A stretch of 17,208 nt of DNA from a bacterium (GTDB lineage: Bacteria; SZUA-182; DTGQ01; JAFGSM01). The position numbers were made by a program, and so were the translations under genes. Position 1 is the first letter of the stretch. Each line of letters starts with the position of its first letter. The stretch covers positions 1-17,208 of the forward strand of contig JBLIRP010000081.1 in the NCBI GenBank assembly GCA_049472355.1, written 5' to 3'. The notes under the pieces were generated by a model that made no database searches, was not told where the DNA came from, and saw only the letters and a program-made list of their open reading frames with translations. Positions 276 through 17,166 of this stretch are shown here, piece by piece.

Positions 276-668
276 TTATTGCAAAAGTGTCCACGCCAAA
301 TAGAAACTTGGATCACCGTACGAATACGTCGGATAATCGAACCGCGCATAGGGGATCGGGGTACCTGGCAAGGTGGTGTACGGGAACGTCGTCTGATATG
401 GGGACCCGAAGTACGGAAAGGTCGGAATACCGAGCGTATTGTACGCCGTGCTCACATCAGGGGTAAGGAACGGGGTGAACGGGGCAAAACCGAGCAGGTA
501 GCCGTTGATCGTGTTGAAATAGCCGTAACTAGGGTAGTAAAGCGGGTTCGTATAATAATACGATGTGGGAAAAACCTGAGCCTGAGCCATCGGTCCCATA
601 ACAAGGACAGCACCGATTGCCAGGACAGCCACAAGCACCCACATTCTCACAAACCTGAAATTATCCAT
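276..668 (-). CDS. Small secreted Tyr/Pro/Thr-rich protein, paralog A (130 aa)
   Basis: Start moved from 752 to ATG 668 because GAAGGAGAG RBS lies just upstream and the length then equals paralog B. Sec-type signal ending AQA|Q, then a 100-aa mature region 77/100 identical to 16291-16683. Confidence 0.88.
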   Translation of the reverse strand: MDNFRFVRMWVLVAVLAIGAVLVMGPMAQAQVFPTSYYYTNPLYYPSYGYFNTINGYLLGFAPFTPFLTPDVSTAYNTLGIPTFPYFGSPYQTTFPYTTLPGTPIPYARFDYPTYSYGDPSFYLAWTLLQ

Positions 669-745: not shown

Positions 746-756
746 GAATCACCTCC
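746..756 (-). promoter_or_regulatory. Conserved orphan Shine-Dalgarno-like motif GGAGGTGATTC in 5' UTR of module A
   Basis: Identical 11-mer at a similar distance upstream of both small genes (78 nt here, 73 nt in B). No start codon at normal SD spacing. Confidence 0.45.
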
Positions 757-2180: not shown

Positions 2181-4274
2181 ATGCTCAAGAAACTCTTTTC
2201 CCCCCATTCTGTAGCTGTTATCGGGGCTTCCAGGGAACAAGGGAAGGTCGGTCACGAGGTTCTCAAGAATCTGATTCTGGGTGGATTCGATGGCCATATT
2301 TACCCCGTCAATCCAAAAGCGGATAAGATCCTCGGCAAACGGTGCTTTCCGGACCTTTCGGACATAAAGGGACGGATAGATTTGGCGGTGATCGTTATCC
2401 CTGCCAAATTGGTTCCCCATGCCCTGGAAAAATGCGGTGAAAAAAAGGTCCCTGCCGCTATCGTCATTTCCGCCGGCTTTAAGGAGACCGGTAAAGACGG
2501 GGCCGGTTTTGAGCGTGAGATGCTCGAATGCGCCAGGCGGAATGATATACGAATCCTGGGTCCCAATTGCCTCGGTTTGATCAACACCGATTTCCGTCTC
2601 AACGCATCCTTTTCTCCTGACATGCCTCTGCAGGGGAGCATCGGATTCTTTTCGCAGTCGGGCGCCCTGGGGACCGCGATTCTGGACTGGGCGGTCGGGG
2701 AAAAGATCGGCTTTTCCAAATTCATCAGCCTCGGCAATAAGGCGGATATCTCCGAAATCGACATTCTCCAGGTGCTGGGGGAAGACCCTCACACCAAGGT
2801 TATCCTGGGTTACCTGGAGAGCGTGGAGAATGGATCGGAATTCATCCGAATTGCCCGGGAAATCTCCAAGAAAAAACCGATCATCATAGCAAAGGCAGGC
2901 AGCACCAAGGCGGGTGCACGAGCCGCCTCCTCCCACACCGGGAGCCTGACAGGCTCCGAGGTCGCCTTCAATGCCGCCTTTAAACAGAGCGGAATCATCA
3001 GGGCCTACTCCGTGCAGGATCTCTTTAACTATGCCCTGGCATTTGCCTATCAGCCGCTTCCCACGGGAAACAGCGTGGCTATCGTGACCAATGCGGGCGG
3101 CCCCGGCATTATGGCCGCTGATGCATGCGAGCGTTTTCATCTGAACCCGGTCACCCCGAGCAAGGACATCATCGATGAGCTGGCGGGCTTTCTTCCTCCT
3201 GCAGCAGGTTTTTTTAATCCGATTGATATACTGGGAGACGCAGGTGCGGAGCGGTACGGAAAGACGCTGGATGTGGTGGTAAAGGACCGAAAGCTGGATG
3301 GCATCATCACCATCCTCACCCCTCAGGCAATGACCGAGGTCAATCAGACCGCTGAGGTCCTGGGAGAGGTGTCCATGAACATCAATAAACCCATTCTTTC
3401 ATCATTTATGGGTGCGCACAGTGTCAGGGACGGTATTGAACGGCTGGCCAAGTACAAGATCCCCAACTATATCTATCCCGAACAGGCAATAGAGGCATTC
3501 AGCAAGATGTGGGCGTATAAACAGTGGGTTGACCTGCCGGACGGCCACTACAGAAGTTTTTCCGGTGACAAGGAGCGGGTGCGCGCAGTGCTGCAGCATG
3601 CAATGCAGAATGAAACCTTGACCATGAGCGAACAGAGCGCCCGGGAGATCCTGGATGCCTACGATGTGTCCCTGCCGCGGTACGAGGTTGCCGAGACATC
3701 CGATGCCGCGGTGGAATTTGCCCGCAGCATGGGATTCCCGGTGGTGCTCAAGATCGTTTCCCCCGATATCCTCCATAAATCGGATGTGGGGGGGATACAG
3801 GTGGGGCTTCAGACCCCTGAAGAGGTGCGGCAGGCCTTCCATGACATCATCGCGCGCTGCCGCCGGTTCCTCCCCAAGGCAAATATCAGAGGAGTGGCGG
3901 TTCAGAATATGTATCAGAATGTCAGGGAGGTGATCCTGGGCATGTCCCGCGATCCGAATTTCGGCCCCCTGATCATGTTCGGCCTTGGAGGGATCTATGT
4001 CGAGGTGCTGAAGGACGTCACCTTTCGCGTCGCCCCGGTGAGCGAAGAGGACGCCAGGGGGATGATCACCGAAATCAATGCATATCCTCTATTAAAAGGG
4101 GTGAGGGGACAACGGTCTGCCGATCTGGATGCAATCGTGGAGACGATCCTGCGTCTTTCTCAGATCGCCGGTGATTTCCCCGAGATTTGCGACGCGGATA
4201 TCAATCCTTTGGCGGTGATGGAGGCAGGCGAGGGTGCAATCGCCCTGGATGCCCGGTTCACCATCTGCCATTGA
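2181..4274 (+). CDS. Acyl/acetate-CoA ligase (ADP-forming), fused alpha/beta (CoA-binding, ligase and ATP-grasp domains)
   Basis: SVAVIGAS, IYPVNP, RILGPNCLG, SQSGAL, phospho-His motif ASSHTGSL, TNAGGPG, NPIDILGDA. C-terminal ATP-grasp with PVVLKIVSPDILHKSDVGG, FGPLIMFGLGG, DINPL, LDAR. No GNAT domain seen. Confidence 0.92.
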   Translation: MLKKLFSPHSVAVIGASREQGKVGHEVLKNLILGGFDGHIYPVNPKADKILGKRCFPDLSDIKGRIDLAVIVIPAKLVPHALEKCGEKKVPAAIVISAGFKETGKDGAGFEREMLECARRNDIRILGPNCLGLINTDFRLNASFSPDMPLQGSIGFFSQSGALGTAILDWAVGEKIGFSKFISLGNKADISEIDILQVLGEDPHTKVILGYLESVENGSEFIRIAREISKKKPIIIAKAGSTKAGARAASSHTGSLTGSEVAFNAAFKQSGIIRAYSVQDLFNYALAFAYQPLPTGNSVAIVTNAGGPGIMAADACERFHLNPVTPSKDIIDELAGFLPPAAGFFNPIDILGDAGAERYGKTLDVVVKDRKLDGIITILTPQAMTEVNQTAEVLGEVSMNINKPILSSFMGAHSVRDGIERLAKYKIPNYIYPEQAIEAFSKMWAYKQWVDLPDGHYRSFSGDKERVRAVLQHAMQNETLTMSEQSAREILDAYDVSLPRYEVAETSDAAVEFARSMGFPVVLKIVSPDILHKSDVGGIQVGLQTPEEVRQAFHDIIARCRRFLPKANIRGVAVQNMYQNVREVILGMSRDPNFGPLIMFGLGGIYVEVLKDVTFRVAPVSEEDARGMITEINAYPLLKGVRGQRSADLDAIVETILRLSQIAGDFPEICDADINPLAVMEAGEGAIALDARFTICH

Positions 4275-4425
4275 TAAGAACGATCCGGTTAATCCATACG
4301 CAGGATATACACTGCCGGATTGAGAAAAGGGACCGATGCGGCAATTGATGCACACGAGGAGCGGAAAGAGGTTCCGCACGGCAATGCCTCTCGTTATTAT
4401 CATTTAATGAGAAGAGGAGAATGCG

Positions 4426-5496
4426 ATGATTTCTCTCTATATAGGATCAACGAGCCCATATTCCGGCAAGAGCCTTCTGTGTATGGGATTGGGGAGAAGG
4501 TTCGAAAAGGATGGATTGAGCATAAGCTACCTGAAGCCCTTCGGGACAACCCTGACACGGGTAGGGGACCAGATCACCGACGAGGATGCCATATTCGTGG
4601 AACGCGCCCTTTCCCTTGATGATCCCTTGGACTTGCTCTGCCCCGTGGTGGTGACCCAGGACATGATCATACAGGGGTACATGGGGAAGCTGGTCGGGCT
4701 CGAGGAGAAGGTGATGGAGGCGCATAAGAGACTTTCCCAGGATAAGGACCTCATCCTTATCGGGGGCGGCAAGAATATCTATGACGGGGCGTTTCTGGGC
4801 CTCTCCGGTGTATCGTTGGTCAAGAAGCTTAAGGCAAAGGCGATCCTGATCGACAAATATGAAGAAGACATATGCATTGACTGCATCCTCGCGGCCAAGG
4901 AGGCCCTGGGTGAGAGACTGCTCGGGGTGATCATGAACCGGGTCTCCGGGGAAAGCGAAGGCTGCCTCCGAAGACGGGCGGTTCCCTTCCTGGAGCAAAA
5001 GGGGATACCCGTGCTGGGGATTTTACCGTATGATTCCCTCCTTACCTCGGTGACGGTGAGGGAACTGGCTGATATATTGAACGGCCGGATCATTTGCTGC
5101 GAGGACCGGGTCGAGGATCTCGTGGAAAGCTTCAGCGTGGGTGCGATGAATGTGGACAGCGCCCTCAAGTATTTTCGGGCAAAAAAGAACAAGGCGGTGA
5201 TCACCGGGGGAGACCGGTCGGACATCCAGCTTGCCGCATTGCAGACCTCCACGAAATGTATCGTGCTCACCGGCGATCTGTATCCCAATGAGATCATCAT
5301 CACCCAGGCCGAGGAACGTCACGTTCCCATCATGATTGTGAAGAGGGATACCCTGAGCACCATAGAGGAGTGCGAGCGGATCCTGGGCCGGATGCGCATA
5401 AGGAATGAGCGGAAAATGCGAAGGGCCATCGACCTGGTCAAGGAGCGTATCGATTTTGAGCGCATCTATGAAAAACTCGGACTCAGCCTGGGGTGA
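4426..5496 (+). CDS. Phosphotransacetylase-N-terminal-like protein (BioD/AAA_26-like P-loop plus DRTGG domain), no catalytic Pta domain
   Basis: N-terminal STSPYSGKS P-loop, YLKPFG, GVIMNRV, VLGILP, then VGAM and AVITGGDRSDIQLAAL (DRTGG signature). GAGGAG RBS. Confidence 0.85.
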   Translation: MISLYIGSTSPYSGKSLLCMGLGRRFEKDGLSISYLKPFGTTLTRVGDQITDEDAIFVERALSLDDPLDLLCPVVVTQDMIIQGYMGKLVGLEEKVMEAHKRLSQDKDLILIGGGKNIYDGAFLGLSGVSLVKKLKAKAILIDKYEEDICIDCILAAKEALGERLLGVIMNRVSGESEGCLRRRAVPFLEQKGIPVLGILPYDSLLTSVTVRELADILNGRIICCEDRVEDLVESFSVGAMNVDSALKYFRAKKNKAVITGGDRSDIQLAALQTSTKCIVLTGDLYPNEIIITQAEERHVPIMIVKRDTLSTIEECERILGRMRIRNERKMRRAIDLVKERIDFERIYEKLGLSLG

Positions 5497-10150: not shown

Positions 10151-10606
10151 TTATTTCACGTTGACCGTGATCTTCTTCGCCTTCTCATGCTCGGCCTTGG
10201 GAAGACTGATCTCCAAGACCCCCTTGCTGTAATTCGCCTCGACCTTGTCGGTCTTGACCTCGGCAGGGAGCATGAACGATCGGGAAAAGGAGCCGTAGCG
10301 ACGCTCGGTCAAATGGAGGTTCCTCTTCTCCTCCTTTCGTTCCTCCTGTTTCTCCCCCTTGATGGTCAGTATATTGTCAGCCACGGATATATCCACGTCC
10401 TTGGGGTCAATGCCGGGCAGTTCCGCCTTCACAATGACCTCCTTGTCGGTCTCCTCTATATCGACCGCAGGGGAACCGAGGAACGCATCGCCCAAGAAGG
10501 CCTTCTCCATCGGCAGAACACTTCCGAAGAACCGGTCGAAGATGGAATCTATGTCCGTTCGAAGATCCATCAACGGATGGGCTTCTCTCCAGGGTATCAG
10601 TGCCAT
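10151..10606 (-). CDS. Small heat shock protein (Hsp20/alpha-crystallin family)
   Basis: PAVDIEET, VKAELPG, LTIKGEK, ERRYGSFSRSFMLP, ANYSKGVLEISLPK, C-terminal I-T-V motif. AAAGGAGG RBS. Confidence 0.96.
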   Translation of the reverse strand: MALIPWREAHPLMDLRTDIDSIFDRFFGSVLPMEKAFLGDAFLGSPAVDIEETDKEVIVKAELPGIDPKDVDISVADNILTIKGEKQEERKEEKRNLHLTERRYGSFSRSFMLPAEVKTDKVEANYSKGVLEISLPKAEHEKAKKITVNVK

Positions 10607-11053: not shown

Positions 11054-13480
11054 TCAATCCATGTAGAAGTTGAGCCGCTCGGCCAGGAGTCTGAATGATT
11101 TGACAAGGGAGGGGGGCGTATCCTTGGCATGGTTACTGGTGAGAGCGGGGAGGGTATGATGAAGGAAGGAATAGTACAGGTTCTGTATCTGCCACATCTC
11201 AATGTCCAGCTTGAGCTTTTCAGCAATATCCAGCAGGGTGTGTACGGCATATATATGATGCTCCTGGTGCGGATGTTCAATCAGTTCTTGCAGGGCGTCT
11301 TCAAGGTGCCTTTTGATGCGCTCTTTCACTACGGGCTTGCATAAACCAATGCGCCATATTCTCCCTTGATCAATTATTTCAAGGATCTCTTCTTTATTGT
11401 TCCTGCCGCCCATAAGGCTTTCGATTGCCTCCTCGAGATCCATGGATAACGAATAATCCGCGGCGATGAGAAACCCCTGAGGCACGGGGATATCCATGTC
11501 CACGAACTGGCCCATGATCGCCTTGTTGTTTTCATAGATGGCACGATAGGTGTCAGCGAATTCCCTTTTAATGTTCTGGCTCAGCAGGTCCCCGATCTTT
11601 CTCCGCTCATCGAGAAAAAGGTCTTTCAGGCTGAGAATATGGCATTGGAAGCTGCTGTCCAGGTCCTTTTTGACATTTTCCACCTTTCCCAGATTGAATT
11701 TCCAGAAGTGATACTTGGTGAGCTTCAAAAAGCTGTTGGCGAATGTTGAATCCTTCAGATAGGTAAAGAAATGGGGCCCATCCATATGAAGGACGGCGAA
11801 ATAGGCATTCAGGGATTCCTGGGTGATGGTATGCACTATCCTTACCTTTCCCATTGCCAGGCCCTTTCCGTCCTTGATTCCCTTTTGGAAGTCCTTGACA
11901 TCGATCTGGAAGCAGTAGATTCGTTGCGCCGGCGCGTAATTCTCAAACAGGGAACTGATGGCGTAATGGCTCAGTACCTTTTTCAAATCGAGCTTGAGCG
12001 GGAGAACCTCCCGAAGGTAGATATCCTTGCCCGTCCCTCGTGCATGGACATTGCTCCGTGCCTTGGCAAGTGTCTCCAGAAACGGTGCCTCGATATCCTG
12101 TTGAGTGAAATGTCCTGCAAGCTGGATCGCCCGTGATGCATACTTCAGGATCTGCACGGCCTCTAAACCGGAGATGTCGTCGAAAAACCAGCCGCAACTG
12201 GTAAACATCAGGTGAGAAAACCGCTGCATTTCCATCAGTTGCAGGACCTCGATCCTTTTGGATTCCTCGATGGAGCGGACCTGGTGGCGGGAAAAGAATT
12301 CATTCCTCCGTCCTTCGGAGCGGTCCAGTATGCAATCGATATAATCGACGAGGGTCTCCCAGGGGTCCTTCACATGCTGCCGTGCCTGTTCTTCATAGAT
12401 ATCATCGAGCACGTGTTTCAGTTGCTGGAGGGCCGTGCGGAGCGGTTCCCGCCATTTCTGGTTCCAGTGAGGATGGTGCCCGGAGTGGCATCCGCAATCC
12501 CCGCGCCAGCGCTCGATACCATGGCAACAACTCCATGAGGTATTCTCGATGATTTCAACCTGGAACTGGGGGGGGTGGATCTCCAGAAACTGCCCGTAGT
12601 TGATCAGCTTTATATTCCGTTTCTCTATGCTGGAGAGCACATAGGCCAACGCCATATCGCCGAATTTGAAATGGTGTCCGTACGATTCGCCATCCGTGGC
12701 CACGGAAAGGATGGAGGGCCATATCCGATTTGCACTGAAACCCGACAACAGACGGTTGATAAAGATATCACCGCTGCTGAGCACCTTATCGAATGCGATT
12801 GAGTTCGAAATGGGGCCGTCGTAAAAGAAGATGTCGATGAAGCGATCATCGTCCAAAAAGCAGCGGTAGGGGAGCGTGGGATCGATCTTCCCTCCCCTGA
12901 CGTCCATCCATTCATAGGCATTGATCCTTTTTATTCGGGATGCCTGATGGGGTGCGAGGATGGTGAATCTGATTCCCGCCTCGGCCAGAAGATCAAGGGT
13001 CTCCCGGTCGACCGCGGTCTCGGCAAGCCACATCCCTTCAGGGGACCGGCCGAATCTCCTTTGGAAGTCCCTGATTCCCCACTGGATCTGTATCCATTTG
13101 TCCCTCGGTTCTGCAAGGGGCATAATGACATGGTTGTATACCTGGGCGATGGCATTGCCGTGCCCGTTTCGCTCCTGTGCGCTCAGGCGGTCTGCTTCGA
13201 GGATCGATACATAGACCTTCGGCGCATGGCGCTCCATCCAGGAAAGCAGGGTGGGACCGAAATTGAAGCTCATGAGATGGTAATTATTTGAAATCGCGAG
13301 GATCCTGTTCCGATTATCAACAATCCTTGCAGCGGTGTTGGGTGCGTAGCATTCCGCAAGGATCTTTTCATTCCAGTCATGAAAGGGCCTTGCCGAGTCC
13401 TGGATTTCCAGCTCGTCCAGCCATGGGTTTTCGCGGGGAGGTTGGTAAAAATGCCCGTGAATACAAAGATATCGTTCCAT
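11054..13480 (-). CDS. Glycoside hydrolase family 57 protein with DUF3536 domain
   Basis: CIHGHFYQPPRENPW, SFNFGPTLLSW, AQVYNHVIMPL, nucleophile region GMWLAETA, FFYDG, acid/base region ATDGESYGHH, SWSCCHGIERW, MFTSCGWFFDDISGLE. Confidence 0.93.
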   Translation of the reverse strand: MERYLCIHGHFYQPPRENPWLDELEIQDSARPFHDWNEKILAECYAPNTAARIVDNRNRILAISNNYHLMSFNFGPTLLSWMERHAPKVYVSILEADRLSAQERNGHGNAIAQVYNHVIMPLAEPRDKWIQIQWGIRDFQRRFGRSPEGMWLAETAVDRETLDLLAEAGIRFTILAPHQASRIKRINAYEWMDVRGGKIDPTLPYRCFLDDDRFIDIFFYDGPISNSIAFDKVLSSGDIFINRLLSGFSANRIWPSILSVATDGESYGHHFKFGDMALAYVLSSIEKRNIKLINYGQFLEIHPPQFQVEIIENTSWSCCHGIERWRGDCGCHSGHHPHWNQKWREPLRTALQQLKHVLDDIYEEQARQHVKDPWETLVDYIDCILDRSEGRRNEFFSRHQVRSIEESKRIEVLQLMEMQRFSHLMFTSCGWFFDDISGLEAVQILKYASRAIQLAGHFTQQDIEAPFLETLAKARSNVHARGTGKDIYLREVLPLKLDLKKVLSHYAISSLFENYAPAQRIYCFQIDVKDFQKGIKDGKGLAMGKVRIVHTITQESLNAYFAVLHMDGPHFFTYLKDSTFANSFLKLTKYHFWKFNLGKVENVKKDLDSSFQCHILSLKDLFLDERRKIGDLLSQNIKREFADTYRAIYENNKAIMGQFVDMDIPVPQGFLIAADYSLSMDLEEAIESLMGGRNNKEEILEIIDQGRIWRIGLCKPVVKERIKRHLEDALQELIEHPHQEHHIYAVHTLLDIAEKLKLDIEMWQIQNLYYSFLHHTLPALTSNHAKDTPPSLVKSFRLLAERLNFYMD

Positions 13481-13861: not shown

Positions 13862-13894
13862 AAAAAAAGGCAGCGGATTTTTCCGCTGCCTTTT
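13862..13894 (-). terminator. Intrinsic terminator of module B
   Basis: AAAAGGCAGCGGA-TTTT-TCCGCTGCCTTTT hairpin with a 7-U tail on the - strand, 28 nt past the large-gene stop. Confidence 0.88.
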
Positions 13895-13922
13895 CGAATA
13901 ATCTTATGGAGAGGAGACGTAA

Positions 13923-16268
13923 TTAGTAGGTCCACCAGGGCTTTACATCCAGGAAGAACTCCATGACCGCGTAGCCTCCCCTGATGTCGTAGAACACGAT
14001 TTCCACCATATAAGACCCGGGAAAGTTCGACTGGAAGGTCCAGATAAAGGAACCGTCCGGTGCACTCCCGCAGGAGCCTATGTTGCATGATGCATACAAC
14101 TGATCGCCATCGGGATCTTCCACCGCAAAGTTGGGGGTGTGCAGGATGAACTCCTCGCCCGCCTTGATGACCACCGGCTGGGTGGGCCCGCCGAGGATGA
14201 TGGGCGGATGGTTCAACCACGTGCCTCTGTTCACGGAAAAGATGGTGATCTCGCCGAACCCGAGTGCCCCCCGGGCATCCCGGCAGGTTATCACCGCATC
14301 ATAGGCGCCCTCGAACTTCGGCACCCAGCCGATCAAACCGCTGCACGGATTGATTATCTGCTCGGTCCAGGGACCGTACTGGTAGCTGGGGAGTCCGTTG
14401 ATGGTCAAGTTCCAGACCATGCCCTCCATGTCGGTCCTGAAGTTCGCGTTGAGGGGAAACCCCGGGATGTGGGTGGTTGCCGGAGGCTGGCCCATGGAGA
14501 AGATGAAGCAATCGGGATCGATGAAGTTGACGATGTATTCACCCAACTCGCCCACGTAGAAGATCTGGTCATCGATATCGAGCTGCACCACGGGGGGATA
14601 GTTTTCCATCGGGTAGTTCACCACGCTGATGGGGAAGGTGCGCACGTCGGAGTGAACCCCGTTGGTCACCTCGATGGTCACGATCAGGTCCTCGAAATAC
14701 ATCGGCGTGTAGTCGAGGGCCGCGATGTTCGGCCACACGGTTACCCCTGCATTCCATAGGGCGCCTTCCAGGAGGAAGGTGAGTTCCGGGCGATAGAACG
14801 GTTTTCCATAGGCCGCGATTACATCCAGGGCCGCATAGTAGGCGGGGAAATACGTGGGCATCCCGTCATACGGATACACCGGGAGCGGCTGGAGCAGGAA
14901 TGCCTGGACACCATTGGCGCCGTAGCCCCCGACGGTGGCATTCCATCCCAGGGTACCCTGTGCGATCACGCATTTTGCCATCTCACCGCCCAATCGCATA
15001 TTGGCATCGGCAAAGATGGGCAGGCTGAGGTCCACCACGAATTGGTCCCTCTTGAACAGTGCGGCGATATTGGGATCGTTTGTTCCGAACAGATTGGGAT
15101 CCGCGCCCAGATCGGTCCAGTATTTTACGACCGGATCGTCGGGATCATTGGGGTCCTCGACCAGCAGGAAATTTTTGGGATTGAGCATCAGATCGCTGAC
15201 GTGGTCGCATTCGCTCCTGTGTCCGTCAACATCGTGGGTGGCGATGTTGGCGCCTGCATAGTCCGCAAAGAACAGGAATCGATAGGGCTCGAAGACCTGG
15301 GCATAGAGGGGCCCCATTTCGAACAGGTCGGGGTAGTCGAGCATTTCATGACCCGTATCGGACCTGAACATGAGATTGTCCAACCTGAACATCTGGCCGC
15401 TCAGGAGAATGGCATTGGCCTGAACCATGTACCAGTCCGATCGTTCGGAGGATTCAATGTCGTCGGACGCATCCACCGCAGCCTTGACCGCATCGGGCAG
15501 ATTGATCCAGACCACGTGCCATGATCCGTCAAGGAGACCTCGGCCCAGATACACCATCACCTCCATTGATCCTGCAGTGGTGCCGGAGGAATCCCTGAAC
15601 CCGGTAACCGCTGCCTGATAGCCGTACATCCCTTCGGTGCTGTTCACCGGTCCGATACAGGCGCCGGCGGGGGGCTGCAGAGGCACGAGCCTCACGGTGA
15701 TATCGTTTGGTATTGACGCACCGGTGTACCCGGTCACGGCAATTTCGAAGATGTCCCACTTTTCAATACCGAGGGGCGCCCTGAACTGGAAGCTCAGCAC
15801 GGGATCCTTGGTGAGATTGATGAAATTTTCCCCGTCCTGGTCAACGGCACTCGGTGGGCTGTAAAGGCCATGGAGAATCATATGCTTCTCGTAGGGAGTG
15901 CCGAGCAGGAACACGGAAGCGGGACGATACACATCAAGCACCCTGCTTCCCTCCTGCAGATCAAGCACGGTGTTGAAGATGGTGGCGTAGCCCATACCGA
16001 ACCCATAGGTCGGATATGCCGGCTCGGACTGTCTCCAGCCATGGTTGTATGGACTGTCCCAGTATTCGAAGTTGTCGATAAGGATATCCCCTTCTCCCAA
16101 AAAGGGATCTTCCCATGTCGGGACCTGTAGTGGTTGGGTAGAGAATGAGGGGAAACTCCACAGCGGCGGGAAACCGAAACCCACCTGGGCCACGGCTGCA
16201 GTTTCGACCATCACCATAACCAGGGCCACAACCACACACACAATCAAGGTCTTCTTTACACTCTTCAT
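13923..16268 (-). CDS. Large secreted protein, paralog B (781 aa); probable N-terminal CBM/galactose-binding-like domain and C-terminal cadherin/Ig-like repeats
   Basis: GAGGTG RBS 7 nt before ATG 16268. Signal peptide ending AVA|Q. ILIDNFE...GW...WHVVWINL...RLDNLMF pattern. Two NxPP...DPD repeats. Ends KPWWTY. The CDS is secure; the domain calls are tentative. Confidence 0.85.
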   Translation of the reverse strand: MKSVKKTLIVCVVVALVMVMVETAAVAQVGFGFPPLWSFPSFSTQPLQVPTWEDPFLGEGDILIDNFEYWDSPYNHGWRQSEPAYPTYGFGMGYATIFNTVLDLQEGSRVLDVYRPASVFLLGTPYEKHMILHGLYSPPSAVDQDGENFINLTKDPVLSFQFRAPLGIEKWDIFEIAVTGYTGASIPNDITVRLVPLQPPAGACIGPVNSTEGMYGYQAAVTGFRDSSGTTAGSMEVMVYLGRGLLDGSWHVVWINLPDAVKAAVDASDDIESSERSDWYMVQANAILLSGQMFRLDNLMFRSDTGHEMLDYPDLFEMGPLYAQVFEPYRFLFFADYAGANIATHDVDGHRSECDHVSDLMLNPKNFLLVEDPNDPDDPVVKYWTDLGADPNLFGTNDPNIAALFKRDQFVVDLSLPIFADANMRLGGEMAKCVIAQGTLGWNATVGGYGANGVQAFLLQPLPVYPYDGMPTYFPAYYAALDVIAAYGKPFYRPELTFLLEGALWNAGVTVWPNIAALDYTPMYFEDLIVTIEVTNGVHSDVRTFPISVVNYPMENYPPVVQLDIDDQIFYVGELGEYIVNFIDPDCFIFSMGQPPATTHIPGFPLNANFRTDMEGMVWNLTINGLPSYQYGPWTEQIINPCSGLIGWVPKFEGAYDAVITCRDARGALGFGEITIFSVNRGTWLNHPPIILGGPTQPVVIKAGEEFILHTPNFAVEDPDGDQLYASCNIGSCGSAPDGSFIWTFQSNFPGSYMVEIVFYDIRGGYAVMEFFLDVKPWWTY

Positions 16269-16290
16269 AGCCATACACCTCACTTTTGGA

Positions 16291-16683
16291 TTATTGTAAG
16301 AGCACCCAACTCAAATAGTATGCAGGATCACCGTATGCGTAGGTCGGATAGCTGAAACGTGCATAGGGAATCGGCGTACCCGGCAGCGTTGTATAGGGAA
16401 ACGTGGTCTGATACGGAGACCCGAAGTACGGATAGGTCTGGATACCGGTGCTGTTATAAACATACGCCGTTTCAGGGGTCAAGAACGGCGAGAAATGACC
16501 GAATCCGAGCAGGTATCCGTTGATTGTATTGAAATAACCGTAACCGGTAAAAAAGAGTGGATTTGTATAATAATATGATGTAGGGAATGTCTGGGCCGGA
16601 ACACCTGATATCAGAAAGCAGGTGACGAGGATCGCCAGGCTGCCTGCCGCGAGCCATACCCTCAAAAACTTGACATTGACCAT
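16291..16683 (-). CDS. Small secreted Tyr/Pro/Thr-rich protein, paralog B (130 aa)
   Basis: GAAGGAGAG RBS. 30-aa signal ending VPA|Q. 100-aa mature part aligns without gaps to paralog A. Stop lies 22 nt before the large-gene start. Confidence 0.88.
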   Translation of the reverse strand: MVNVKFLRVWLAAGSLAILVTCFLISGVPAQTFPTSYYYTNPLFFTGYGYFNTINGYLLGFGHFSPFLTPETAYVYNSTGIQTYPYFGSPYQTTFPYTTLPGTPIPYARFSYPTYAYGDPAYYLSWVLLQ

Positions 16684-16755
16684 AACCACTCTCCTTCGGG
16701 CCTTTTTACTGAAAAAAGAATCACTTCATATCTTTCATTGTTCCGTACCTGACGT

Positions 16756-16766
16756 GAATCACCTCC
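16756..16766 (-). promoter_or_regulatory. Conserved orphan Shine-Dalgarno-like motif GGAGGTGATTC in 5' UTR of module B
   Basis: Identical to 746-756, at an equivalent position. Confidence 0.45.
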
Positions 16767-16958
16767 TTGTTTGATTCATCCCTTGTATTGCTGTCGCGTT
16801 TATATTTTCATGCCCGATTATGCAACCGGACATGGGGTTTATTTCTTCAACCACCATCCATAAAAAAATTATCATAAAATCACTGGTAAAGTCAAAAATC
16901 AGCAGTTTTTTTCATCTATTTCAGATGCACTGTAACATATCGTTATTGTGGTTATTAA

Positions 16959-16974
16959 AGCAAAAAACATGCCA
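16959..16974 (-). promoter_or_regulatory. Sigma54 (-24/-12) promoter candidate for module B
   Basis: Minus strand TGGCATGTTTTTTGCT: GG and GC separated by the canonical 10 nt, close to the TGGCACG-N4-TTGCW consensus. Confidence 0.55.
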
Positions 16975-17132: not shown

Positions 17133-17166
17133 AAAAAAAGAGGGCAGCGGATATCCGCTGCCCTCT
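17133..17166 (-). terminator. Intrinsic terminator of probable large-gene paralog C
   Basis: Perfect palindrome AGAGGGCAGCGGATATCCGCTGCCCTCT with a U-run on the - strand. Shares the GGCAGCGGA/TCCGCTGCC stem with 13862-13894. Confidence 0.88.

Follow-up and report, generated by a model that had tools for sequence, protein, structure and literature searches.

SraP of Staphylococcus aureus carries a lectin-type head on tandem cadherin-like modules with calcium motifs (PDB 4m00; available part of PMC4047093). Among surface layers (S-layers), those of Aeromonas are secreted by the type II secretion system (T2SS) and anchored to lipopolysaccharide (LPS), and Campylobacter fetus varies its S-layer proteins (available part of PMC13721041). 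In the cry3A mRNA of Bacillus thuringiensis, a Shine-Dalgarno sequence without a start codon, STAB-SD, blocks RNase J (available part of PMC4113751). Here, a two-gene unit from a bacterium of an uncultured order is compared with these systems. The unit consists of a gene for a small tyrosine-rich protein followed by a gene for a large secreted-type protein, and it lies in a stretch of 17,208 nt, hereafter the window. The window is the entire contig G000:C129 of a 3.5 Mb genome (G000; 87.5% complete), and the flanking genes at both of its ends are therefore cut by assembly breaks.

The two protein families are a real, order-specific and expanded pair of unnamed exported proteins. Large-family members were detected in all 13 genomes of the order, with 11–29 matches per genome, and in 0 of 7 other genomes of the phylum. 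The small family was likewise found in 13/13 genomes of the order and in 0/7 of the others. A protein search returned 185 large and 113 small relatives, and the relatives listed are unnamed, hypothetical, or named after an added repeat. When 1.84 billion representatives were searched with a profile, matches outside the family were confined to the last two domains of the large protein, which recur as repeats in proteins of ~800–7500 aa; the six outside matches that were scanned are He_PIG/Big_9 proteins. Neither window protein has a significant Pfam, NCBIfam or PDB sequence match. An NCBIfam ZorA1 match at E 0.44 was dismissed as chance. In the structure atlas the large protein scored 0.83 at best (Ig clusters, a lead only), and nothing was retrieved for the small protein. 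The reading we favor, with a probability of about one half, is that the pair would supply exported parts of a non-covalent protein coat, into which the large protein would be docked by an aromatic tail and in which the small protein would act as mortar.

Two copies of the unit, A and B, and the 3′ end of a third large gene are present in the window, all on the minus strand. This arrangement had been described by a first-pass annotation made from the window alone, and it was confirmed. The small and large genes are separated by 38 nt in unit A and 22 nt in unit B. The small open reading frame (ORF) of unit B may start at 16689 or 16683, and ATG 16683 agrees with the ribosome binding site (RBS). 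The unit B terminator was missed by the pattern scan and was found by folding energy and z score. RNA contigs from two studies cover both units and span the small-large junctions; pieces at 20–360 and 16011–16818 show 9 and 46 differences, respectively, and a 200-nt piece within large B shows none. A single contig over two genes does not prove a single transcript. The short gaps, the terminator and these bridging contigs bear out the operon layout that the annotation had proposed. Contig depth cannot rank genes, the RNA runs were found using this gene, and depth was not used as evidence: summed depth (82% likeness) is 12–890 on both units vs. 0–16 on the other window genes, and contig depths are 515 on unit A (97% alike), 8–13 on the closest unit B pieces, 12 on rplC and 2–6 on near-identical pieces of two solo large copies, a hint only that the A-type copy dominates expression.

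Large A and large B are 80% identical over 79 aa. The third large gene ends in 77 nt, terminator included, that are identical to contig C70, and the truncated 5′ end of large A is near-identical to a large gene on C127 (Table 1). Because of these identities, the assembly probably split two close A-type units, and one of these would stand in tandem with unit B. Assembled tandem small-large-small-large arrays are present in loci L004, L005 and L052, and the G009 contig L079, syntenic with the window, carries 467 aa of a large gene at the position of the third gene. The identical 77-nt 3′ end is limited to the A-like pair. Concerted evolution of all paired copies was considered and rejected, since copies within a genome are 73–80% alike and orthologues 88–93%.

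The mature small protein of unit B contains 18 Tyr, 15 Thr, 12 Pro, 10 Phe and only 3 charged residues. Across 110 rows of the family, the 100 mature residues are 19% Tyr, 13% Pro, 12% Thr and 4% charged. Small A and small B are identical at 77/100 mature positions vs. 9/30 signal positions, with pN 0.15 and pS 0.71, and their likeness is therefore not due to chance. In 15 pairs of small genes, pN ranges from 0.01 to 0.16, pS from 0.06 to 0.78 and pN/pS from 0.11 to 0.25, indicating purifying selection. The small protein matches 0 Pfam families at E up to 1, so there is no profile match to the sulfur globule family (PF17228). A Tyr/Gly/Pro-rich composition is also a feature of sulfur globule proteins. 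The uncharged, secreted Tyr/Gly/Pro-rich composition would thus suit proteins that stay in the periplasm and envelop an inclusion, but no Pfam match supports that kinship, and a cadherin-like stalk with a head resembling carbohydrate-binding modules (CBMs), as predicted for the large protein, is typical of outward-facing proteins; we regard such an inclusion role as highly improbable.

The small module is also found in other contexts. At L077 3368–4771 (G003:C69), it is fused to the N-terminus of a 467-aa protein without a Pfam match. Long small variants with a SITDPFY insert precede genes of the PPYNxLWPLWSP family, which has ~30 genes in G000 (G000:C2 44625–45898 and C41 2173–3379; L035, L070, L071, L073, L075, L076). 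In L086 (2616–6437) and L087 (5979–9671), a conserved secreted-type gene of 1230–1273 aa lies ~600 nt upstream of a single small gene; the two loci were read whole, and the 3′ end of this gene was found in all six genomes of family f2. A crude screen of G000 retrieved 77 signal-like proteins that start with Gln and are aromatic and low in charge, of which roughly ten are false matches to membrane proteins; the Gln start was a filter, so this screen cannot test the Gln rule.

Among 46 small-family genes in the order, a count that excludes one weak match (G004:C24), 21 short ones precede a large gene. Ten are long variants, of which nine precede the PPYNxLWPLWSP family, another secreted family. 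Seven are divergent orphans, six are the single copies in family f2 behind the conserved secreted-type gene, one is the fusion to the 467-aa protein, and one runs off a contig end. Only the short type in genus g1 and G012 shows a strict link, with a large gene next in 21/21 cases that have downstream DNA; none of the six f2 genomes (0/6) shows it. Seen from the large genes of G000, 4 of the 18 with visible upstream DNA follow a small gene. In a FastTree phylogeny of 62 large proteins, a biased sample drawn from the fetched loci, 13 are paired, 48 are alone and 1 is unscored. Because the pairing state changes six times and paired copies fall in distant clades, pairing appears to be old or recurrent but optional. 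The first-pass annotation had expected a fixed pair kept in several diverged copies: the copies are there in every genome of the order, whereas the pair is not fixed. It had also stated that full-length matches to a characterised family, or homologs usually unlinked, would speak against its proposal. The genes are indeed often unlinked, but no full-length match to a characterised family was found.

The AlphaFold2 model of the large protein, built with 90 sequences, has a pLDDT of 88.5 and a pTM of 0.82. It predicts a carbohydrate-binding-type jelly-roll head on three cadherin-like domains (D1–D3), in line with the CBM-like and Ig-like parts that had been suspected from the sequence. The best structural match of the head is the sandwich of the C5-epimerase 4pw2 (Z 14.5, rmsd 3.5, 168 aligned), and this match is confined to chain residues 198–370. 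The head also matches two trypanosomatid microtubule proteins (Z 13–14) and many CBMs (Z 8–10; CBM16/11/29/30 at Z 9–9.7). In the D1 region (mature 283–526), a core of 80–95 residues aligns to dystroglycan and SraP cadherin-like domains with middling scores (Z 7.4–7.8). The D1 insert (15257–14739) contains three Asp-Pro-Asn motifs and carries the invariant residues D441, W415 and P444; searched within D1 and not as a separate fold, it found no structural match in two libraries. Asp-Pro-Asn occurs 3.7 times per protein in 120 homologues, compared with 0.23 expected. For D2–D3 (mature 529–751), SraP 4m00 aligns at Z 9.5. Residues N529, P532, D557 and D559 are invariant in 90 rows, and N659, D691, D693 and D695 are kept in at least 90%. 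Prediction of a large-small complex scored 0.00, with the small chain's own fold uncertain, and was not used either way.

The top Foldseek match of the whole large protein is again SraP 4m00 (E 9.5e-12). Together with the CBM matches of the head, this would fit an adhesin or biofilm protein that binds glycans on its own in the manner of SraP; the small protein would only anchor it or help it fold, and the paralogues would widen the range of ligands. Conservation is lower in the head (0.58) than in the D1 core (0.77–0.78), the head has been lost or replaced in some large copies, and the available part of PMC4047093 reports a division of labour between lectin head and cadherin-like stem. However, the large B sequence has no serine-rich repeats, no LPXTG or other cell-wall motif and no membrane anchor, the small family also accompanies unrelated partners, and the tandem arrays and leader motif suggest bulk supply. 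We therefore consider an adhesin of this kind unlikely. No catalytic domain was found in the large protein, and its model has no epimerase helical barrel. Since one defining feature failed in each case, the large protein falls outside the SraP, epimerase and S-layer homology (SLH) families, and the small protein outside the sulfur-globule family.

One paralogue subfamily of large proteins has an in-frame TGA in G008–G011, with TGC or TGT at four homologous sites. Two more copies (G000:C22 and L050) carry a TGA near this position, where the model shows a low-confidence loop. The genes selA, selB and selD were found in 11/13, 12/13 and 10/13 genomes of the order, respectively, and each selD has its own TGA. 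A stem starts 15 nt past the UGA in 4/4 cases, with a loop that differs from those behind the selD UGA. From its TGA at a Cys position and the sel genes of the order, the TGA paralogue is a probable secreted selenoprotein variant. Genome-wide recoding of TGA to Trp was rejected, because TGA ends 951 of ~1780 long ORFs. The selenocysteine-type site is absent from the window large copies. A UGA aligned to Cys, the invariant D441, W415 and P444 and an insert without structural match might point to a secreted enzyme, with its active site in the insert or head and of redox type in the selenocysteine variants. Yet short paralogues lack most of the insert, the window copies have no Cys/UGA site, and the epimerase match covers only the non-catalytic sandwich; an enzymatic role seems to us very improbable.

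Most large homologues (136/172) end in PWW. Another 11/172 have a different long C-terminus, and 8 of these 11 end in an aromatic, low-charge stretch compared with 24 of 1288 control proteins; 25/172 homologues, truncated or unclassified, were set aside. The variants with uncharged aromatic tails lack the last domain and PWW. Conversely, PWW is retained despite the loss of D3 in C22 and P0255, and it also stands at the end of one PPYNxLWPLWSP-type protein. These exchanges suggest that D3-PWW and the tyrosine-rich tails may do the same job, docking to a coat. Both this tail exchange, with D3-PWW replaced by an aromatic uncharged tail, and the start-less Shine-Dalgarno sequence in the leader are new in this analysis. 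A mini protein at G000:C56 2657–3439 has a signal, then a brief stretch rich in tyrosine and a single D3-type domain, and ends in PWWSF. PWW is weak as a general sorting signal (10/633 signal-like ORFs vs. 4/1983 soluble, mostly from the large family).

Trp-mediated strand swapping is known in animal cadherins. With the conserved terminal Trp-Trp, it would favor a fibre in which large subunits polymerise head to tail, the Trp-Trp inserted into the next subunit and the small protein forming the core or nucleating growth. None of the inspected loci, though, has an usher, sortase or other assembly gene beside it, and single-domain and headless variants retain the tail. Of the top 120 covarying pairs (226 rows, effective 153), 15 join the insert and D2, whereas the 3 head-D3 pairs are not above noise; this analysis has too little power to judge head-to-tail assembly. 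A fibre is accordingly very unlikely in our assessment.

Both window proteins begin with a hydrophobic signal-like stretch followed by Gln, as read from the sequence with no signal-peptide predictor, and the exported-type proteins with Gln-start mature chains that had been proposed are thus upheld. Gln is at position +1 in 108/110 small rows and 60/90 large rows, where 11 rows are gaps. BamA, LpxC and the type II secretin GspD score over their cut-offs in the genome, indicating a diderm. SLH domains were found neither in the large protein nor in the 87.5% complete genome G000. A crystalline S-layer, with the large protein as its type II-secreted subunit, the paralogues as switched lattices and the small protein seeding or anchoring the lattice, would agree with the compact four-domain model (pTM 0.82), its Ig-like domains, the presence of GspD, and the T2SS-secreted and variable S-layers described in the available part of PMC13721041. 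Against it, there is no significant structural match to solved S-layers (for D1 alone, HPI 8cka at E 0.24 and SbsC 4uj7 at E 0.16), no SLH was found in the genome, and the copies are scattered and every paired one has a leader of its own, unlike silent cassettes. We judge an S-layer to be rather improbable.

A perfect Shine-Dalgarno sequence without a start codon lies in the leaders of small genes A and B (Table 1). Such a site is present in the leaders of 21/27 canonical small genes vs. 17/927 control genes. It lies 73–173 nt upstream of the small start, in three families, and the surrounding leaders are divergent. Only 3/60 large genes are preceded by it, and one of the three is an ordinary RBS. 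Most of the 17 G000 control genes that carry a start-less GGAGGTG seem to code for proteins with a signal, which suggests that GGAGGTG may be a leader motif of the secretome. In the small-gene leaders of the f2 loci L032–L034 and L036–L038, a second Shine-Dalgarno sequence and an ATG open a mini-ORF of 4–16 codons, 40–50 nt before the start-less site. RNase J (TIGR00649) was found in 0/13 genomes, eight of them at least 90% complete, and the motif therefore cannot act as in Bacillus. More likely, the site would serve as a ribosome stand-by or as a shield against another nuclease. The candidate promoter of unit B is a consensus match only, and 5 sigma-70-like sites were found vs. 3.7 expected by chance.

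The coat reading builds on features read directly from the data: how the genes are laid out, how many copies there are and in which genomes, the composition and conservation of the proteins, the tail exchange, the leader motif, the presence of RNA and a diderm genome with a type II secretin. The small and large genes would form one operon-like unit making two exported coat parts. Export would proceed by Sec and then by type II secretion, placing the coat outside the outer membrane. For the large protein, the prediction is a head of sugar-binding type carried by a rigid cadherin-like stalk, which calcium may stiffen; its aromatic PWWxY tail would dock the protein into the coat. The small uncharged tyrosine/proline protein would be the mortar, a reusable coat module with several partners and not a dedicated chaperone of the large protein. 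Paired copies may supply the bulk coat, with solo copies as specialised variants that have swapped heads, TSP3 or metal-binding repeats, or the probable selenocysteine form.

Several observations weigh against this coat reading. Most large copies have no small partner (14/18 in G000; 48/61 scored tree rows), so the small protein is not needed beside each large gene. The head fold is common to enzymes, CBMs and non-binding proteins; sugar binding does not follow from it and is thus only predicted. The glutaminyl cyclase family PF05096 is present in 9/13 genomes and was not found in G000, G008, G009 and G011; an unassigned M28 protein is present. The RNase J on which the described role of a start-less site depends was not found in the order, and the tail contrast rests on 11 related proteins and is not a p-value. 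A broader claim is held tentatively and is in our view doubtful, though less so than the rival explanations: that this is an undescribed kind of coat in which interchangeable aromatic tails, either PWWxY or tyrosine-rich, keep bricks and many cargo proteins in a mortar of small uncharged tyrosine proteins, without lipid, covalent or SLH anchor, fed by start-less leaders that work independently of RNase J.

Confined to one uncultured order and multiplied within it, the two families probably define its cell-surface presentation. If the coat reading is true, an aromatic tail in a tyrosine mortar would be an anchoring principle outside the SLH, lipoprotein, sortase and type IX routes. How mRNA is controlled through a start-less ribosome site where RNase J was not found is a separate question. 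No description of such a two-protein system was found in the literature, but the coverage was partial and made without a lineage name, so absence from print is unproven.

Table 1. Coordinates of features of the two-gene units in the window and of the in-frame TGA in related loci.
Feature	Position	Strand	Remarks
Small gene B	16291..16683	-	130 aa; signal-like 1-30; mature 100 aa from Gln at 16593
Large gene B	13923..16268	-	ATG 16268; 781 aa; signal-like 1-27; mature chain from Gln at 16187
Large B head, galactose-binding-like jelly-roll beta-sandwich (predicted)	15348..16121	-	mature 23-280
Large B D1, dystroglycan/cadherin-type Ig core (predicted) with ~170-residue insert	14610..15341	-	pLDDT 94.8 folded alone
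Large B D2, cadherin-like, NYPP and invariant D-P-D motif	14229..14609	-	structure match, profile matches
Large B D3, cadherin-like (Big_9/He_PIG-related), NHPP and DPDGD motifs	13941..14219	-	profile matches
PWWTY C-terminal motif, candidate docking tail	13926..13940	-	PWW terminal in 136/172 homologues
Intrinsic terminator, unit B	13864..13895	-	hairpin -23.3 kcal/mol, z -6.9
Start-less perfect Shine-Dalgarno GGAGGTGAT, leader of small gene B	16758..16766	-	such a site in 21/27 canonical small genes, 17/927 control genes
Sigma-70-like site TTGACT-16-GATAAT, candidate unit B promoter	16868..16895	-	consensus match only, 10/12
Small gene A	276..668	-	130 aa
Large gene A, 5′ end, truncated by contig edge	1..237	-	215/237 nt identical to large 5′ end on C127
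Start-less Shine-Dalgarno GGAGGTGAT, leader of small gene A	748..756	-	as in small gene B
Third large gene, 3′ end (...PWWSY stop), truncated by contig edge	17189..17208	-	467 aa of it in G009 (L079)
Intrinsic terminator, third large gene	17139..17166	-	-25.9 kcal/mol, z -6.6
In-frame TGA at Cys position	L105, L107-L109 (G009:C2, G011:C271, G010:C106, G008:C48)		sequence comparison

Between units A and B, ordinary metabolic genes and no assembly or export gene are present, at 11054–13480 (-), 10151–10606 (-) and 2181–5496 (+). From their sequences, we take the genes between the units to be a GH57-like hydrolase, Hsp20, an acyl-CoA synthetase and a DRTGG-type protein. The rplC gene (1473–2177, +) is isolated ahead of the acyl-CoA synthetase-like gene and is the sole copy in the genome. 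The S10 operon in L090 (G000:C101) reads tuf-rpsJ-rplD-rplW-rplB and has no rplC.

Compared with known systems, the large protein resembles SraP in its predicted model, in which a lectin-type module is projected by cadherin-like modules. Unlike SraP, with which it shares 10–15% identity, it has a head that matches galactose-binding-like sandwiches, three cadherin-like domains, a 170-residue insert and no serine-rich repeats or LPXTG, and it belongs to a diderm host with about 18 paralogues and a small partner gene. It is related to the He_PIG (PF05345), Big_9 (PF17963) and dystroglycan-type repeats of giant surface proteins through family profile matches at ~625–764, with 17/51 large homologues matching Big_9 at E up to 0.01, and through an Ig-like sandwich with NxPP and DxD calcium motifs, as in cadherin-like proteins. 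The He_PIG/Big_9 giants, however, have 7–40 domains, whereas the large protein has three, and its fixed head, insert and PWWxY tail are confined to one order. The head shares its beta-sandwich fold with D-glucuronyl C5-epimerase (PF21174, 4pw2) and CBM11/16/29/30, and homologue P0271 matches PF21174 at E 4e-4, under the cut-off; unlike these enzymes, the large protein has no epimerase barrel or glycoside-hydrolase domain. As in Aeromonas and Campylobacter fetus, as far as the available text on their S-layers goes, a signal-bearing protein occurs in several variants per genome, and the host is a diderm that has both LPS and a type II secretin. The unit differs from those S-layers in showing no sequence or significant fold match to them and in having two gene products. 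The leader, finally, resembles STAB-SD, as described in the available part of its source, in holding a perfect Shine-Dalgarno sequence without a start codon within the 5′ leader; it differs in belonging to an order where the nuclease that STAB-SD blocks was not found in 13 genomes.

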